A stretch of DNA of 64,000 bases from Pseudomonadota bacterium (GTDB lineage Bacteria > Desulfobacterota > Desulfobacteria > Desulfobacterales > RPRI01), in assembly GCA_043825875.1 (NCBI GenBank), contig JBDRRF010000031.1, forward strand, positions 1 through 64,000, given 5' to 3'. Shown here piece after piece: positions 1-9,000 of the stretch (positions within the stretch are counted from its first letter, which is position 1; each line of letters starts with the position of its first letter). The position numbers are program-made.

Positions 1-3000
1 TACTATGCGATGTCCCTGGTAAAAAATGCTGCCCATAAGAACAGTTGGATTTTCACCCGGCTGACCGCCTATTGTTACATCACCTATCGTATAGGTTTTT
101 TGTTCCTGAGTAAATGTTAACACTTCTTTATCACTCCTATAATAAAAGATAACTACTCATGTTGTTAGGTTCGCAGTTGGTTATCCTGAATAGTTACAAT
201 AAAAATTGCCTATGCCATTGGAACAATATCTTCCGCTTGTTCCTCTAACCATTCCTTTGTTTCATCCTCATCGCCTTTCATCAGCTCTTGAAGCTGTGCA
301 TCGGTATCGCCTGTTTTCTCTATCTCCACAAGCCAGCCTTCTCCATAAGGATCTTTCATTATCAACGCCGGATCTCCAGCGGATATTGAAGGATTTACGA
401 CAGTAACCGTACCTGAAACAGGGGCGATAATTTCTCTAACGGCTTTACTTGTCTCAACTGTTCCGATCGAATCGCCTTTATTTATTAAAGCTCCTGCATC
501 ACATGTCATTTTAATGGTTACCAGTTTCTTTGCCGATCTTACGATTATATCGCTTAAACCGACGCGTATCTTTCCAGCCTCTTCCTTTACCCAAAGCAAC
601 TCCGTAGAATATAAAACATCTTCCGGAAATACGAGTTCATAACCCCATAGGTTTTCCATATATCAATACCTCTTCATATATACTTTTCAAAAAAACTGAA
701 TATCGAACAAGGAATTTCGAATTGTGAAGTATTTGGCGGATTTTAAACAACCCCCTTTATCCCCCTTTTTTAAGGGGGAATTTTAACGTCTTACTTCATC
801 ATTTGGTGCTGGTTACGAACCTAAGATATTCCTCATTTAATAAGGTTAAACCAGCTCAAATATTCCCCCTTAGAAAAGGGGGCAAGGGGGTTGTTTACTT
901 ATATCTTATATCTTCCTTCGATATTCATTTGTTCAATTTAATTACTACCTGTTCTTCAGCATGGGTACTTCACCTGCTTTTAACATCTTAACTTTTTTAA
1001 TGGCTTCAATAGCGCTGATCCCTGCAGCATCAGCTCCGTATTCTTCGGCCTGTTCATCCGTAAACGCCCAGCCTCCAACAATGTAAATCAAATTATCCCG
1101 CACACCTATATCAACAAGTGCTTTATTTACATTTCCGCAATAAGCTTTCACAGGAGACAGAATAGCTGAAGCGCCTACTACCGTTGCGTTATGTTTTTTT
1201 GCGGCTTCCGCAAAGTCCTTTCCAGATTTGTTCTCACCGATATCAACTACATTATATCCATTAGCGGTAAATACAGCTCCCACTATGCGCTTTCCGATAA
1301 AATGCACATCTCCTTCAACCGTTCCGATTACCATCGTTTCACCCATGGGCTTTCCGCCTGACTCAATAAGAGGACGCAGCTTGTCGGTAGCATCATTTAA
1401 CATGTCCCCTGCAATAATCAGATCGCTCATGAACCGCTTGCCTGTATCGAACCCCTCGCCGATAATGTTTAAACCTGGGTTCATACCTTCCATGATCATA
1501 TCAAGAGGGCCTACATCTATCTTAAGACCCTCATCAATCAACTCAAACAATAAGTCGTCATCAAGATCAATGACTGCTTCTTTCATCTTTTCCAATAGTT
1601 CTGCTTTATTTGACATAGTACTCACCTTTCCTTTGTGATTATTCTTACATCTTGGCAAATTTCCTGGCTGCCGCTACACTGGCGTCCATATGTTCAGGGG
1701 TTGTATAATAATCAATAGCACCCAAACCTATCGTACATCTGTTGTTGGGTATTTTTTTAGCGGCATCACATCTTCCTTTTATCTCTTCTTCTATTTTGGA
1801 CATAGGTCCGCTAACAAGTAGTTTATCTGAAGGAGCATAGCATCCGTACATGTTATGTTCTTGTACAAAATCATTTACTATGTTGTATCTGTTAATATCT
1901 CCTGTACACATAATCCCATCAAAGCTGTCATCTCCCAAGGCACCAGCTTTAAGCAATTCATCCAGCCAATCGGTTGCTCCATCGAAAGCCCAGGCGTGTA
2001 CAATGGGCTTTTTTACCGCTGCTTTAACAGCCTTGCCGACCCTCGCATATTCTCCGGCTATCCACTCTACACCTTTAATGGGATACATCCCGACAAGAGA
2101 ACACATATAGCTGTAATCAACTTTTCCTAAATTACTTACTGCTATGCCAAGTTTTATCAGCCAGTCGGAGGCCCTATTTGATAGTTTCTTGCAAAATTCA
2201 GGATTCTTGCGAAGATGCTTTAAATATTGATTGTAACCTACCATATGCGAGCAGGCAAAACCGTCCGGACCTTCACAAAATGATCCTTCAATAGGAATTT
2301 TGTCGCTCAAACCATATTTATCAAATATTCTCCTTGATTCCTGGCAAAACCAGAGGTATTGGGCAAACATGCCGTGTTTTGTGGGATCGGGAGCCTCAAG
2401 CCCTTCTAGATCTTCAATAGTTTTTATAAGCGGATCTCCATCATGCACCGGATTGCCGTTTTCAATAAACATCGAATTCCAGCCAAATAAATTTTCGCCA
2501 TAAGAAATTGGTGCACAAAACATTGTGTCCAACTTATAGCGGGCTGTTGTTGCCAGATGAGATTTGACAAGCAATTTGGGATAAAAATAAGCATCGATGG
2601 CTTTAACGGCATCGGCAAACCCATCCAAGGTACGCAGGGCATAAGTTGGGAAAAAAAACGGCTCTACAAGCAGACGGTCTCTTTCCTTGCCTTCCATAGT
2701 AGCCTTAAAACGTTGCATCGGAGTCATTTCTTCTTCTTTGATATTTTTATGAATCTTCTCGCAGTAACGTTCTATCTCTCTTTCCTCTTCAGGTCCCCAA
2801 CTTAAACTGGCATTCAGTTCATCAAGCGATTTTCCGTAATAGGGCCCTGCACCTTTCATTTCTCCTAATTTGATAGTCATGTTCTTTTGTCTCCTTATTT
2901 ATAATTAATTATTTTCATCACTAAATCATGCTAAGTATTTTCTCACTCTCTTAGACGCAAGCTTGCCCGGAATCCCGGAAACACCTCCTCCGGGATGTGA

Positions 3001-6000: not shown

Positions 6001-9000
6001 AGGGAGCGTATTGCTTAAGAAGGCTTCGATTGTGCTGCATGCCGCCGGCCGCCATAAGTACGGCTTTATTTGCTTTTACGAAAATGGTGTTTCCTTCCGA
6101 ATCTGTGGCTTTTAATCCAACAATTCTGCCATTATCTTTCACCAATGTGTCAACTTGAGTATTAATTTGAAACTTGACCCCCTTGTCCTTGCACTTTTCA
6201 ACAAGAAAGTTAGTAAGGTCCGTTATAGCGATATAACATAATTTCTCGTGGCCACCTTTGGAGGTGACTGCGGGATATCCTGCTCTTTCATTCTCCCATT
6301 CAAAACCCTGATCTTCTATCCAATCAACGACTTCACCACTTTTTTGTATCATATTGCGAAACAAGTGGATGTTGCCTGTGTAACCTGTTTCAAACAGGCT
6401 GCCCATGGCAATTTCATTTACATCCCATTCTATTCCTTCTTTTTTCTGTATTCTGCTGTTGTAAGCGTAAAAGGCACCGGCGTATTGTGTTGTCCCTCCG
6501 GTAAATTTCAATTTCTCCAAAAGAATCACGGAGCATCCTTCCGTAGCAGCTTTCAGTGCGCCGGCAAGGCCTCCTCCTCCTGATCCGACCACTACTATAT
6601 CGGCCTCATGATCCCATTTTTCCGGTGGGTCCACCGGCAGGATCGGCTCCGCATCTTCCGGTTTTTCGAGTGGTTTTTCTCCTACTCTCCAATCATAATC
6701 TTTGTTCATTTTTGCCTCCTTTATTTTGAATTTATAATTTATTTGTATCCATATTCATTTTGAATCTGAGCAGTTATAAGTATCATTGCTTAAATCGTGC
6801 CAAAATATTATTACTTATATATTCAATATATTATGCACATTAACATTTAGCAGCTATCTAAATTAAATAAATATAGTTATAATAAACGTAAAAAGTGTGT
6901 TATATGACTAGTGATAATTTTTTCAGAACTTAATATTAAGCCGGGAGTATTTTATGGACATTGACGCAAACGAATTTTTCCGTCAGGCTACAATGAGGAT
7001 TTGCGGAAGCCTGGATATCGAAACCGCCATGTGGAAGGCTCTGGAATATTTAGAACAATTTATACCATTAACCGGAATGAATCTTGTGCTCGGTGAGCCG
7101 GGTATGCCTGCCATAGAAACACTGGCTCAGGTCAGCCGCCATAAGATAGAAAAGATGAAGCGGATCATACCATTGACCCCGGAAATTGGCGCAGAGGTTG
7201 AAAAACACTGGTCAAGTCTTCAGGATGTTTTAATCATAAACCGGCCCGAGATGTTTCCGACCACTCTTAACGTAGTAACAAAACTGATCAATAGACCTGA
7301 TATGGCTACCATGACTCTTCCGCTTAAAATACAGGACAAAAGATTATTTGCTCTCGTAACTTATTTAATCGGATTAGATCAATACGAAAACAAACATGCC
7401 CGACTGCTTTCGATGTTGCATGACCCTTTTGCTCTTGCTATGTCAAATGCTCTTCGTCATCAGGAGCTTTTAAAGTTAAAAGAAATGCTTGCTGATGATA
7501 ACCGTTATCTTTATCAGGAGATGCGTCGTATTTCGGGCGATGAGATAATTGGTAAAAACGCGGGCCTGAAACAGGTTTTCGATACGGTCGAACAAGTTGC
7601 TCCCGTGAATATTCCTGTGCTTCTTCTTGGTGAAACAGGAGTTGGAAAAGAAGTAATCGCAAATGCGATTCATTATTCTTCTCCCAGAAAAAACCAGCCT
7701 TTTATTAAGGTTAATTGTGGCGCCATTCCGGAAACACTGATTGACTCCGAGCTTTTCGGCCATGAAAAAGGCGCTTTTACCGGTGCGTTAGCCCAAAAAC
7801 GCGGCAGGTTTGAGCGGGCTGACAAAGGAACTATACTTTTAGATGAAATAGGTGAACTGCCACTTGAAGCACAGGTAAGACTTTTACGTGTATTGCAGGA
7901 TAAACAGATAGAACGTGTTGGAGGTACCACGCCAATACCAATAAATGTCAGAATTATTGCCGCCACAAACAGAGATCTTAAAAATATGGTTATTTCAAAG
8001 CTGTTCAGGGAAGATCTCTGGTTCAGGCTAAACGTTTACCCCATCAAGATCCCGCCATTGAGGGAAAGGGTAAAGGATATTCCGGATCTTATTTATTATT
8101 TTATTAACAGAAAATCTGTTGAACGAAATCTGTCTCATCCTCCGACAATTGATCCGGCAGTTATTGAACAACTAAAAGCTTATAGCTGGCCCGGCAATGT
8201 ACGTGAACTTGAAAACTATGTGGAACGAATATTAATCCAACATCAGGGGCAAAATATTTCGGGTCCAATGATTTTTGAAGATGCTTTATCCCAGCAATTT
8301 GAATCTGAACCACCCAAAACTAAAACACAGGAGCACACAACTTCGGCAATAAATGATGTTTCTTTGCATATTAAAGAGATAATGAAAATTGTTTTCCCGC
8401 AGTCCGATATTAACAAATTGATTTCACGGGATGTCAATACAGACAATCAAGTACCGATGGGAATTGAGAAGCTGATATCCTGGCATATTCAAAACGTATT
8501 AAAAAAGACCGGGGGCAAAATTAACGGCAGCGGAGGAGCAGCAGAACTTCTCGAAGTAAACCCCAGCACGCTTAGAAGTAAAATGAGAAAGATTGGTTTG
8601 TTACACAAATAGAATAATACTACTTAGGTTCATGGGCTCATGGGTTTCAGGTTCAGGGTTCAAGGTTCACAGTTTGTTGCCTTGAGCCTTCATACCTCAT
8701 AATCGTAAACCGTAAACCGTGATCCTTGAACCCTGAACCCTAAAACTGCAAACCTAAGTGTTATAAAATTCTTCCCAGGTTATATCCTTCATAAATAGCC
8801 TCAAGGGCCCTTCTCGGTGATACGCAATCGCCTACCCTGTGAAGCTTCTTTACTTTCCCTTTCAATTCTTTGTAAAGCTGATCATCTGCACGGTTTCCGG
8901 CAGCAAGTACTATTGTATCCACACCCTCTATAGTTTTAGGGACACCGGCATACACATCAAGAAATGTTAATGTATTTCCAGCAATTGCCATTAAATGCAG

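Follow-up and report, generated by a model that had tools for sequence, protein, structure and literature searches.

Positions 1 to 6,709 of the window, i.e. the 64,000-nt stretch of DNA analysed here, are best explained as the portion nearest the promoter of an operon under sigma-54 control, which in this sulfate-reducer-type bacterium would encode a corrinoid-dependent methyl-transfer (demethylase) system of four components. The best explanation of the operon is that it embeds a complete, self-sufficient lipoyl redox module, composed of an H-protein, a LipM/LplA-like transferase, LipA and a dihydrolipoyl dehydrogenase (Lpd). We tentatively propose, with a probability of roughly 0.37, that the H-protein and Lpd carry NADH electrons into the ATP-dependent Co(II)-to-Co(I) reactivation of the corrinoid via the activator RACo.

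Organisation of the operon

The start of the operon occupies the minus strand, from a FAD_binding_2 gene to the 5' end of an MtgA gene, and the gene order and families given in the survey's finding were borne out by profile matches and by reading of the sequence. The features are listed below in order of transcription, preceded by the activator and the promoter candidate.

6954..8612, plus strand: divergently transcribed sigma-54-dependent activator, 552 aa (Sigma54_activat 237 bits, AAA_lid_14, HTH_8)
6787..6802, minus strand: sigma-54-type -24/-12 promoter candidate, TGGCAC-N5-AAGCA, read from sequence
5099..6709, minus strand: FAD_binding_2 flavoprotein, cytoplasmic form, 536 aa (PF00890, 150.9 bits)
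4830..5066, minus strand: 78-aa protein, no Pfam or NCBIfam match
4606..4815, minus strand: 69-aa protein, no Pfam or NCBIfam match
2926..4551, minus strand: CrtI/amine-oxidase-family flavoprotein, 541 aa (PF01593)
1645..2880, minus strand: candidate substrate-side methyltransferase MT1, divergent URO-D/MtaA fold, 411 aa (PF01208, 38.9 bits)
945..1625, minus strand: corrinoid protein, 226 aa from GTG (PF02310 and PF02607, B12-binding and B12-binding_2 cap)
746..895, no strand assigned: nested C5/G5 hairpins, REP-like, inside the 285-nt spacer between the corrinoid protein and H-protein genes
210..659, minus strand: divergent H-protein, 149 aa, lipoyl lysine K72 (PF01597, 84.6 bits)
1..123, minus strand: MT2, MtgA-type methylcorrinoid:tetrahydrofolate methyltransferase, first 41 codons (PF02007, 45.7 bits; MtgA NF047990, 55 bits)

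The sensor domain of the activator matched no known family, and the paralogous operons (on contig C28 and in genome G003) each have an adjoining paralogous activator. The promoter candidate lies about 78 nt 5' of the first ATG; it was called against the -24/-12 consensus, carries two mismatches in the -12 part and is not listed by a strict pattern scan allowing one mismatch. The spacer hairpins are kept in 6/6 copies of the operon, that of G008 having lost the centre; genome-wide there are 29 C5TT..AAG5 hairpins, and an Rfam search of this spacer returned nothing at E<=1 except a chance miRNA match. The G+C content of the island is 0.432 vs 0.391 for the genome, in which 8.7% of windows reach 0.43.

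Among the methyl-transfer components, MT1 has no sequence relative in the PDB, even by profile search, but its AF2 model (pLDDT 71.5) has as best fold match the Methanosarcina mazei MtaA (4ay7/4ay8; E 1e-10, TM 0.58/0.68). The MT1 family has five paralogues in the genome (the other four on C69, C81, C30 and C22), and Cys40, His44 and Cys202, which could be metal ligands, are invariant in 7/7 paralogues or orthologues. The corrinoid protein, which could also be read in an open frame of 237 aa starting with TTG at 1658, stays under the NCBIfam cut-offs (pyl_corrinoid 129 bits, MtgC 126 bits), has a DxHxxG motif, read as DVHFIG, and is predicted to be of the His-on type. The MtgA gene runs off the contig, which ends at a k=141 graph branch; a full-length orthologue in G003 has an identical N-terminus and scores 361 bits against Desulfitobacterium hafniense MtgA (6sj8). 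As MT2 is about 60% identical to this solved tetrahydrofolate (THF) enzyme, a changed methyl acceptor is unlikely.

The FAD_binding_2 flavoprotein belongs to the fumarate-reductase / 3-ketosteroid-dehydrogenase / vinyl-phenol-reductase class, with best NCBIfam matches all far under cut-off and with Fcc3, KstD and urocanate reductase as PDB relatives; its CxxxxC stretch varies among eight homologues, only C312 being invariant (8/8). The 78-aa gene is kept 3' of FAD_binding_2 in C28 and in three G003 operons, and paralogues of it on C22 adjoin CrtI-like genes. The 69-aa protein has orthologues on G003:C47 (96%) and, 3' of RACo, in G008 (81%). The CrtI-like flavoprotein scores 280 bits for CrtO (cut-off 1000) and 127 bits for crtI_fam (cut-off 238). 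The many ene-reductase/dehydrogenase-type flavoproteins suggest that the substrate is a hydrophobic or aromatic compound bearing methoxyl or methyl groups.

The lipoyl module

The H-protein stays under the gcvH equivalog cut-off (73.8 vs 115.85) but carries the VETSKAV lipoyl-lysine motif previously pointed out, and K72 is invariant in 38/38 aligned sequences. It belongs to a clade of 42 clusters (47-92% identical) with clade-specific N- and C-terminal extensions, whose members at 47-57% identity come, where named, from Chloroflexota/Dehalococcoidia. In three of three distant metagenome relatives (about 50% identical), the H-protein gene is directly followed by MtgA. This order, the invariant lysine and dN/dS values of 0.125-0.44 in 15/15 pairs uphold the H-protein as a conserved, selected part of the operon.

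The genome has five clear GCV_H matches (C82, two on C8, C31, which is the contig of the window, and C28), i.e. three more than the two H-proteins counted in the survey's finding. The C82 gene encodes another lipoylatable H-protein, with its own ligase and LipS1. MetF lies between two proteins that have a GcvH-like domain but no lipoyl lysine. Six-frame HMM searches found no GCV_T, GDC-P or 2-oxoacid_dh in the genome (99.81% complete), whereas these were found in 11, 10 and 10 of 14 control genomes, which bears out the reported absence of GcvT, GcvP and E2.

The C28 operon had been described as a near-duplicate. It is a shorter paralogue, encoding only FAD_binding_2, the 78-aa protein, corrinoid protein, GCV_H and MtrH, without URO-D or CrtI; the first 141 bp are identical between C31 and C28. 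C81 encodes the C-terminus of MtrH (98 aa), a LipM/LplA-like protein, LipA (as claimed; TIGR00510, 370.6 bits vs a cut-off of 310.25), a second URO-D and, at its end, the first 47 aa of Lpd (best match lipoamide_DH). The join of C31 or C28 to C81 proposed earlier has no assembled overlap, no sequence being shared by C81 with either contig and MtrH profile positions 37-205 being absent from the assembly, and is supported by synteny only: the region is contiguous on G007:C195 and G008:C23, and partly so on G003:C126.

Indeed, two congeners encode, in this order, the H-protein, MtgA, LipM-like protein, LipA, (URO-D), Lpd, the RACo activator and DUF2284. In both contiguous relatives (G007, G008), a gap of just 13 nt separates Lpd from the RACo gene that directly follows it. 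The Lpd of G007 reaches 571 bits for TIGR01350 (equivalog cut-off 408.8). A contig of 1,952 nt from run X1, which is probably the source sample, spans the whole Lpd and the RACo N-terminus, and contig C3 of G000 starts inside the orthologous RACo. Neither Lpd nor RACo had been named in the survey's finding. A tblastn search of the genome found no LipA, LipM-like protein or Lpd besides those of the operon. Within the genus, orthologues of the H-protein, MtgA and LipA are present together in the same 4/17 genomes. One G003 copy, on C70, stops after MtgA, and neither Lpd nor RACo nor LipA lies close to it. In the absence of P, T and E2, the H and L proteins are in effect a dithiol/disulfide carrier linked to NAD(H).

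Possible roles of the lipoyl arm

The demethylase would consist of the MtaA-fold MT1, the His-on corrinoid protein, the MtgA-type MT2 and an ATP-dependent activator of the RACo/AcsV type, which lies downstream, on other contigs. With NADH, Lpd would reduce the H-protein's lipoyl arm, which in its dihydrolipoyl form would hand electrons on to the [2Fe-2S] domain of RACo, possibly via the Cys-rich DUF2284 protein. The activation machinery would then use ATP to bring corrinoid that has been oxidised by accident to Co(II) back to the active Co(I) state; only NADH and ATP would be needed. We infer the redox cycling of the arm, its partner and the direction of electron flow. The survey's finding had suggested that the arm is the reductant that re-activates the corrinoid: it could at most feed RACo and, with an ATP-dependent RACo in the operon, could not replace the activator.

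Several points count against the feeding of RACo. Set beside its three genome paralogues (C86, C76, C113), the operon RACo shows no additional conserved Cys pair, i.e. no sequence adaptation was seen, and the contigs of these paralogues have no GCV_H except for a weak 23-bit match on C76, so that activators of this type work without an adjacent H-protein. We know of no close precedent in which a dithiol, a two-electron carrier, feeds a [2Fe-2S] centre that takes up one electron. Of the adjacencies, that of H-protein and MtgA is the most conserved, not that of H-protein and RACo; reactivation is a rare event, for which four dedicated genes are a heavy cost; and the C70 copy ends at MtgA.

It seems unlikely that the H-protein and Lpd serve instead as NADH-linked electron donor (or acceptor) of the operon flavoproteins, the substrate being reduced or desaturated before or after demethylation. 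Dihydrolipoyl would be a strong enough reductant for C=C reductions, the FAD_binding_2 family includes C=C reductases (fumarate, urocanate, vinyl phenol) needing an external donor, neither flavoprotein has its own NAD(P)H domain, and the FAD_binding_2 and 78-aa genes lead the operon in C31, C28 and 3/3 G003 copies. However, the variable CxxxxC stretch offers no conserved Cys pair for dithiol exchange, paralogues of both proteins lie at H-protein-free loci (C62, C98, C44, C22, C80, C39, C100), and the G008 flavoprotein is only 37% identical and sits at the operon's far end. Three distant contigs with MtgA, LipM, DUF2284 and URO-D show no flavoprotein beside the H-protein, but are too short to exclude one. 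A link of the H-protein and Lpd to methylene-THF reductase, taking up, jointly with ferredoxin by confurcation or bifurcation, the electrons from oxidation of methyl-THF, seems rather unlikely. In every copy, and in 3/3 distant relatives, the H-protein directly precedes MtgA, the enzyme that makes methyl-THF, and the two GcvH-like-domain proteins flank MetF, but these have no lipoyl lysine, none of the copies examined has such a reductase gene within the operon or close to it, and methyl-THF oxidation by lipoyl alone is uphill. This scheme is the acetogen model of Oppinger et al. in the reverse direction; in acetogens lpdA adjoins metVF and a GcvH/LpdA-reductase model is published, which its own authors, in the passage concerned, rated highly unlikely (PMC8760232).

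The survey's boldest reading, in which the MtaA-like (URO-D) enzyme would methylate or demethylate the dihydrolipoyl thiol, much as if the arm were coenzyme M bound to a protein, is disfavoured as very improbable. The closest structural relative of the modelled MT1, MtaA, is a methylcobamide:thiol methyltransferase, the putative metal ligands of MT1 are invariant, and a second URO-D paralogue lies 3' of LipA; yet Lpd points to a redox-cycling arm, a disulfide/dithiol cycle being impossible for an S-methylated one, and MtgA offers a standard acceptor route. The stretch VHAWAF lies at what we take, without an alignment, to be the place of the MtaA H-x-C zinc motif, a weak hint against thiol transfer. 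Finally, the absence of any mechanistic link seems quite improbable: the H-protein would be the obligatory primary acceptor of a LipM-LipA assembly line, GcvH, LipM and LipA being the known lipoate assembly trio of Bacillus subtilis, and the lipoyl module would simply travel with, or share the regulation of, a C1 island gained by horizontal transfer, in favour of which speak the mildly raised G+C and nearest relatives in another phylum. Against this, no downstream acceptor (E2) was found in the genome, nor any LplA/LipB-type gene (a possible amidotransferase) beyond the operon transferase and the C82 ligase; the C82 H-protein has its own ligase and LipS1, the duplicated operons each keep an intact H-protein under purifying selection, and the H-protein-MtgA order persists at about 50% identity.

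Furthermore, the association has precedents, which limits the novelty claimed earlier. Acetogen Wood-Ljungdahl clusters contain gcvH and lpdA without P/T genes, beside acsE/acsV, with a function left unexplained in the passages concerned (PMC4600107, PMC5039349, PMC8760232), in the order metV-metF-lpdA-cooC-acsD-acsC-acsE-acsB-gcvH-acsV (PMC4600107), and gcvH beside MtrH, MttB-like and MtbC-like genes is mentioned for Asgard archaea (PMC11291895). As these clusters are described, the acetogen ones share with the operon solely a corrinoid protein, a methyl-THF:corrinoid methyltransferase, a RACo-type activator, H and L, and the Asgard ones MtrH, the corrinoid protein and gcvH. The only redox demand in the common functions is Co(II)/Co(I), which supports the feeding of RACo; the independent recurrence in acetogens (PMC4600107) argues against the absence of a link. 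No flavoprotein of the operon's kind is named in the descriptions of these clusters, and their MT1 type varies, being MttB-like in the Asgard clusters (PMC11291895) and absent from the acetogen ones (PMC4600107). In the pertinent passages, the [2Fe-2S] centre of the activating enzyme has a potential of -330 mV, that of the Co(II)/Co(I) couple rises to -250 mV in the presence of this enzyme and ATP, and ferredoxin and flavodoxin are named just as examples of an assumed physiological donor (PMC6739815); for lipoic acid a value of -325 mV is given (PMC8760232). In summary, the operon extends the old puzzle of acetogen gcvH/lpdA and narrows the possible jobs of the lipoyl arm.

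Gene organization of the operon and its probable continuation on other contigs

Positions 1-6709 of the window are occupied by a single, tightly packed row of genes on the minus strand, preceded by a divergent regulatory gene, namely:

5099-6709, minus strand: FAD_binding_2 flavoprotein (536 aa)
4830-5066, minus strand: 78-aa protein of no known family
4606-4815, minus strand: 69-aa protein of no known family
2926-4551, minus strand: CrtI/amine-oxidase-type flavoprotein
1645-2880, minus strand: very divergent URO-D-family protein
945-1625, minus strand: corrinoid protein (B12-binding_2 cap, B12-binding domain and DxHxxG motif)
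210-659, minus strand: GCV_H protein (H-protein), with the lipoyl lysine in VETSKAV
1-123, minus strand: MtrH/MtgA-family methyltransferase, first 41 codons, running off the contig
6954-8612, divergent to the operon: sigma-54 activator

A TGGCAC-N5-AAGCA element (6802-6787) is a candidate sigma-54-type -24/-12 promoter. Up to about 13.5 kb, the window further encodes an OYE/enoate-reductase-type flavoprotein, another sigma-54 activator and a flavodoxin-like protein, and beyond this point it contains housekeeping genes. With 0.432 vs 0.391 for the genome, the G+C content is slightly elevated in the operon. The spacer between the corrinoid protein and H-protein genes (660-944, core 746-895) is unusually long (285 nt) and contains conserved nested C5/G5 hairpins. 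The same hairpin-bearing spacer is present on contig C28 of this genome, in three copies in G003 and in G008 (two relatives of the same genus), its central ~100 nt being deleted in G008. The genome has 29 copies of the basic CCCCCTT..AAGGGGG hairpin, which is thus a REP-like element and could act as a processing or stability site uncoupling upstream from downstream expression. A search of the spacer against Rfam (E<=1) gave no credible match to a riboswitch or known RNA. The RNA run X13 yielded three short partial pieces only.

The survey's finding had described two near-duplicate operons. A paralogous operon is indeed encoded on C28, which starts with 141 bases identical to the window start, but it is shorter, consisting of FAD_binding_2, 78-aa, corrinoid protein and H-protein genes and the start of MtrH. 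At the DNA level, it is 90.8% identical to the window over the H-protein and corrinoid protein genes and 79.8% over the FAD_binding_2 and 78-aa genes. The proposed continuation, contig C81, encodes the last 98 MtrH codons, a LipM/LplA-like protein, LipA and another URO-D paralogue, and breaks off 47 codons into the gene for a dihydrolipoyl dehydrogenase (Lpd, with GGTCLNVGC and lipoamide_DH as best match). In this genome the join is inferred and not assembled, as the survey had stated, because C81 has no sequence overlap with the window contig (C31) or C28 and MtrH profile positions 37-205 are not present anywhere in the assembly.

The join is nevertheless strongly supported by relatives of the same genus. 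Indeed, (i) contig C23 of G008 contiguously encodes URO-D, corrinoid protein, H-protein, MtgA (299 aa), LipM-like protein, LipA, Lpd, the ATP-dependent corrinoid activator RACo, a homologue of the 69-aa protein and a distant FAD_binding_2 protein, (ii) contig C195 of G007 contiguously encodes the H-protein (cut), MtgA, LipM-like protein, LipA, URO-D, Lpd, RACo, DUF2284, MoxR, VWA, OYE and SnoaL proteins, and (iii) the URO-D protein of the latter contig is 99.5% identical to that of C81, while its last genes are 91-99% identical to those of contig C3 of the genome under study, which starts inside the orthologous RACo gene. The Lpd gene of G008 is split into 313- and 200-aa frames (L008:6268-7762), by a frameshift or a sequencing error, and one in-frame TGA was reported in the LipA match of G007 (G007:C195:1886-2812).

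Exact 141-nt overlaps are shared between the contig ends of C28 and C31, of C2 and C3 and of many other pairs; such ends mark places where a k=141 graph branches. The linkage of RACo to the window in this genome is predicted from synteny and graph ends only. In run X1, probably from the source sample, contigs matching the G007 locus cover the middle part of MtgA as short fragments of raised depth, and one contig of 1,952 nt spans all of Lpd and the RACo N-terminus at about twice the depth of its flanks, its loose end matching the shared C2/C3 end. Since X1 contigs cover Lpd, the 'missing' Lpd is an assembly or binning gap, and two Lpd copies are probably present in the genome. The order LipM-LipA-URO-D-Lpd was also recovered on one 3.2-kb contig of an independent groundwater run (X2). 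The 141-nt end common to C2 and C3 lies inside RACo (L023:6400-6770; L022:7145-8539); C3 continues as a full RACo, while RACo on C2 stops after about 190 residues (Fer2 and linker only) and is followed by DUF1329, AveC-like, CrtI-like and SDR genes. The depth in X1 suggests two copies of Lpd with the RACo N-terminus, one of them then leading into the truncated activator.

The H-protein and the lipoyl enzymes of the genome

As the survey had claimed, the canonical lipoyl-dependent enzymes are wholly absent. Six-frame HMM searches of this 99.81%-complete genome gave 0 matches for the T-protein (GCV_T, PF01571), the P-protein (GDC-P, PF02347) and the E2 acyltransferase catalytic domain (2-oxoacid_dh, PF00198), with controls positive in 11, 10 and 10 of 14 genomes, respectively. 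A lipoyl synthase and a dihydrolipoyl dehydrogenase are encoded: LipA of C81 scores 370.6 bits with TIGR00510 (cut-off 310.25), and the intact Lpd of G007 (464 aa) scores 571 bits with TIGR01350 (cut-off 408.8). The LipM-like protein scores 118.7 bits with LplA-B_cat; its sole NCBIfam matches are ligase models, far under cut-off (124 vs 480), and the name LipM is deduced from the adjacent LipA. A tblastn search of the genome found no LipA, LipM-like or Lpd gene besides those of the operon; an Lpd-like oxidoreductase on contig C22 is 32-35% identical and falls under the Lpd cut-off.

Beyond the two operons, three more genes of the GCV_H type, overlooked in the survey, are encoded, one on contig C82 and two on contig C8. 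On C82 (L001:1609-12346), a canonical-scoring GcvH (132 bits) is flanked by two FAD_binding_4 proteins resembling GlcD and by two CCG-domain proteins of HdrD/GlcF-like type. Next come a lipoate ligase with a fused DUF116 domain, a flavoprotein resembling geranylgeranyl reductase and a lipoyl synthase of the LipS1 family (244.5 bits vs cut-off 230). Judged by these protein families, C82 appears to encode another non-canonical lipoyl system, which is of the sLpl/LipS type, resembling the assembly machinery of sHdr-LbpA systems but with GlcD/CCG partners. On C8 (L002:8535-11972), MetF (methylenetetrahydrofolate reductase, MTHFR) is flanked by paralogous proteins of 311 and 329 aa, each combining a Cys-rich N-terminal part with a GcvH-like domain in which N or D replaces the lipoyl lysine. 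A function as lipoyl carriers is ruled out for them by the missing lysine; they may have the fold of an H-protein and serve MTHFR as an accessory subunit.

The operon H-protein scores 84.6 bits with PF01597 but 73.8 with the NCBIfam gcvH equivalog, under its cut-off of 115.85, and K72 in VETSKAV is invariant (38/38 sequences). All six full-length copies, from three genomes, are intact, and dN/dS ranges from 0.125 to 0.44 in 15/15 pairs. Among 71 matches, 42 clusters (47-92% identical) form a distinct clade, marked by clade-specific conserved extensions at the N-terminus (ELxFPEDVxY) and the C-terminus. Where named, the clusters at 47-57% identity come from Chloroflexota/Dehalococcoidia metagenome-assembled genomes, and Chloroflexota-type members lie on contigs of 6-456 kb; Chloroflexota likewise make up most of the Atlas cluster nearest to the URO-D protein. 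The clade occurs in the gene order of the window in 3 of 401 sampled genomes, all of one genus. The arrangement reported in the survey is real and rare. Within the genus, the H-protein, orthologous MtgA (at least 88%) and orthologous LipA (at least 74%) are found in the same 4 of 17 genomes. A metagenome scan with the clade alignment gave, among the matches listed, three in-clade loci out of 80; these are short (1.3-2.2 kb), and MtgA lies directly downstream of the H-protein in all three of those listed, one further carrying LipM, one DUF2284 and one an upstream URO-D gene.

Taken together, the intact copies, dN/dS values, clade structure, co-occurrence, MtgA adjacency and raised G+C fit an H-protein that is functionally tied to the methyl-transfer genes and a self-contained module that has moved horizontally. 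A search for fusions that might reveal its partner gave six GCV_H + DGC-domain proteins (38-40% identity), none of them in-clade, and hence no Rosetta-stone partner. Two complex predictions for MtgA, corrinoid protein and H-protein both gave an ipSAE of 0.00, which weighs neither way.

Methyl-transfer components and possible substrate

The full-length orthologue of the MtgA/MtrH-type methyltransferase (MT2) shares about 60% identity (361 bits) with MtgA of D. hafniense (6sj8), a solved methylcorrinoid:THF methyltransferase. With 412 bits against a cut-off of 550, it falls under the glycine-betaine-specific equivalog NF047990; by homology, THF very probably remains its methyl acceptor. The protein encoded at 1645-2880 scores 38.9 bits with the URO-D family, and no relatives were found in the PDB by sequence, profile searches included. 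Its AF2 model (pLDDT 71.5) is closest in fold to MtaA of M. mazei (4ay7/4ay8), then to uroporphyrinogen decarboxylases, and it is a putative substrate:corrinoid methyltransferase (MT1). The corrinoid protein contains PF02310 and PF02607, with DxHxxG read as DVHFIG, and RACo of G008 and G007 contains RACo_C_ter, Raco_middle and Fer2 domains. The putative MT1, corrinoid protein, MT2 and RACo together correspond to the standard four-component architecture of O-demethylase, Mto and Mtg systems.

In total, the genome encodes five such divergent URO-D paralogues (50-86% identical), on C69, C30, C22, C81 and in the window, a number usual for substrate-specific MT1 families. Most lack a dedicated corrinoid protein and MT2, and some come with a dedicated sigma-54 activator; the set looks like an expansion of substrate range around one common corrinoid/MT2/lipoyl core. 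As to the substrate, there is only a hint that it may carry methyl or methoxy groups and be hydrophobic or aromatic, drawn from the neighbouring KstD/fumarate-reductase-like, CrtI-like, OYE-type and SnoaL-like enzymes and from the DUF1329/LolA-like and AveC-like proteins in G003 and on C2.

Furthermore, paralogues of the FAD_binding_2 protein (~50% identical) with a twin-arginine-type signal (SRREFLKN) are encoded in G003 (L018:7637-9367), where one adjoins a cytochrome c3-like gene, and on C62 of the genome under study (L025:1387-3111). Judging by this signal, they are predicted to be periplasmic versions of the cytoplasmic flavoprotein of the operon. A Cys-rich DUF2284 protein follows RACo on C3 (L022:6470-7081) and MtgA in a distant relative (L031:1475-2095). 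Its best NCBIfam neighbours, far under cut-off, are DUF2284-containing selenoproteins (MbdU, ArsM fusion), and it may serve corrinoid systems as an Fe-S or metal adaptor.

Comparison with known systems and possible role of the lipoyl module

A close precedent is provided by the Wood-Ljungdahl clusters of acetogens (Clostridium aceticum, C. ljungdahlii and relatives), in which H- and L-protein genes likewise occur without P and T in a corrinoid C1 cluster (..metV-metF-lpdA-cooC-acsD-acsC-acsE-acsB-gcvH-acsV; PMC4600107). There, gcvH and lpdA also have the neighbours found in the operon, namely a corrinoid protein, a methyl-THF:corrinoid methyltransferase and a RACo-type activator. The presence of just these two glycine cleavage genes surprised the authors, who called their role unclear (PMC4600107, PMC5039349), as does PMC8760232. 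The operon differs in that (i) it is a predicted substrate demethylase operon and not a CODH/ACS cluster, no CODH/ACS or methyl-branch genes being found among its genes in the genome under study, G003, G007 and G008, (ii) its MT2 is of the MtgA/MtrH type where acetogens have AcsE, (iii) LipM-like and LipA genes belong to it, and (iv) T, P and E2 are missing from the whole genome, whereas several acetogens carry them elsewhere. Conversely, O-demethylases (acetogens, Desulfitobacterium), MtoABCD (methoxydotrophic archaea) and MtgABC share with the operon the set of MT1 (putative in the operon), corrinoid protein, MT2 and ATP-dependent activator, and in Mto and Mtg also an MtrH/MtgA-family MT2. 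The putative MT1 of the operon represents a very divergent URO-D subfamily. As described, none of these systems contains a lipoyl protein, and two papers on Mto, searched for lipoyl proteins, GcvH and glycine cleavage, had nothing relevant. A literature search, covering papers outside subscription, found no lipoyl protein described as part of a corrinoid methyltransferase system.

In sHdr-LbpA sulfur oxidation, it is established that an H-protein-like lipoate carrier, with dedicated lipoylation genes alongside, works independently of glycine cleavage and of 2-oxoacid dehydrogenases (Cao et al. 2018; Tanabe et al. 2023). Its partners are Hdr-like Fe-S proteins and its assembly relies on sLpl and LipS1/S2, in contrast to the corrinoid methyl-transfer neighbours, LipM-like/LipA assembly and classical Lpd of the operon; Hdr-like (CCG) genes and sLpl/LipS1/LipS2 are found in neither the operon nor its orthologues, such genes being encoded on C82. 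In Asgard archaea (Atabeyarchaeia/Freyarchaeia), a putative gcvH, like that of the operon, lies beside genes for an MtrH-family MT2 and a corrinoid protein (MtbC-like there), whereas the MT1 is of the MttB type; this gcvH is mentioned in passing with no role proposed (PMC11291895).

With H and L but without P, T and E2, the module would be an NAD(H)-linked dithiol/disulfide carrier. A lipoyl domain serving as pure electron relay to a non-canonical acceptor is known from Mycobacterium tuberculosis, where Lpd, a lipoyl protein, AhpD and AhpC form a relay from NADH to a thiol peroxidase system; no AhpD-like gene was seen here. Electrons would, in the reading placed first (probability about 0.37), pass from NADH through Lpd and the lipoyl H-protein, perhaps via DUF2284, to RACo and Co(II). 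The acetogen and Asgard clusters and the operon have in common a corrinoid protein and a methyl-THF(-like):corrinoid methyltransferase, joined in the two bacterial cases by a RACo-type activator, and do not have in common CODH/ACS, MetF or the flavoproteins; within the common set, redox chemistry is needed only to bring Co(II) back to Co(I). The activating enzyme has a [2Fe-2S] cluster at -330 mV and with ATP lifts the Co couple to -250 mV, its physiological donor being presumed (PMC6739815), and lipoic acid is quoted at -325 mV in PMC8760232; the potentials are compatible. This redox need, the potentials and the position of Lpd directly before RACo place the route to RACo first. Against it, no special Cys motif and no extra Cys was found in the operon RACo when looked for, other RACo paralogues of the genome have no H-protein, the tightest adjacency is that of H-protein and MtgA, one duplicated G003 operon ends after MtgA, and a dithiol supplying a one-electron cluster would be unusual.

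Other roles fare less well. Electrons could instead go to the FAD_binding_2 and CrtI-like enzymes of the operon, which is unlikely: a redox pair of conserved cysteines was looked for in FAD_binding_2 and none was found, and such flavoproteins are widespread without an H-protein. A partnership of H-protein and Lpd with MTHFR, drawn as a model for acetogens and judged improbable (PMC8760232), is slightly more doubtful still, since MetF is in no operon copy and the MetF-adjacent GcvH-like proteins lack the lipoyl lysine. Mere co-location of the lipoate assembly trio is less probable again, given a genome with no other lipoyl acceptor, duplicates under purifying selection and an association that recurs across phyla. 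Least of all would the lipoyl thiol be a methyl acceptor for the MtaA-like enzyme, a very improbable role that is hard to square with Lpd and a normal MtgA. The remaining weight goes to something not thought of.

The survey's idea of a new job for lipoate is plausible but unproven, and the association of lipoyl gcvH/lpdA with corrinoid C1 clusters is already known from acetogens and not unprecedented. What is new is the demethylase-operon setting, the dedicated LipM-like, LipA and Lpd genes, and the complete absence of canonical lipoyl enzymes from the genome, which narrows the candidate partners. The question raised by acetogen gcvH and lpdA without P/T has been in print since at least 2015, and the operon is a cleaner natural experiment, carrying its own lipoylation enzymes and Lpd but neither CODH/ACS nor MTHFR, in a genome with no other lipoyl-dependent complex; this leaves the corrinoid protein, MT2, RACo, DUF2284 and the flavoproteins as candidates, all of them small, soluble and accessible to expression and assay. 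Tentatively, and with somewhat less confidence than for the route to RACo within the operon, lipoyl-H and Lpd may be a hitherto unrecognized, NADH-fed electron input for ATP-dependent corrinoid reactivation that would also explain gcvH/lpdA in acetogens and gcvH-MtrH in Asgard archaea. If true, protein-bound lipoate would have a third kind of job besides the carriage of acyl/aminomethyl groups and the oxidation of sulfur by sHdr, and the annotation and engineering of methylotrophic and acetogenic C1 modules would change.
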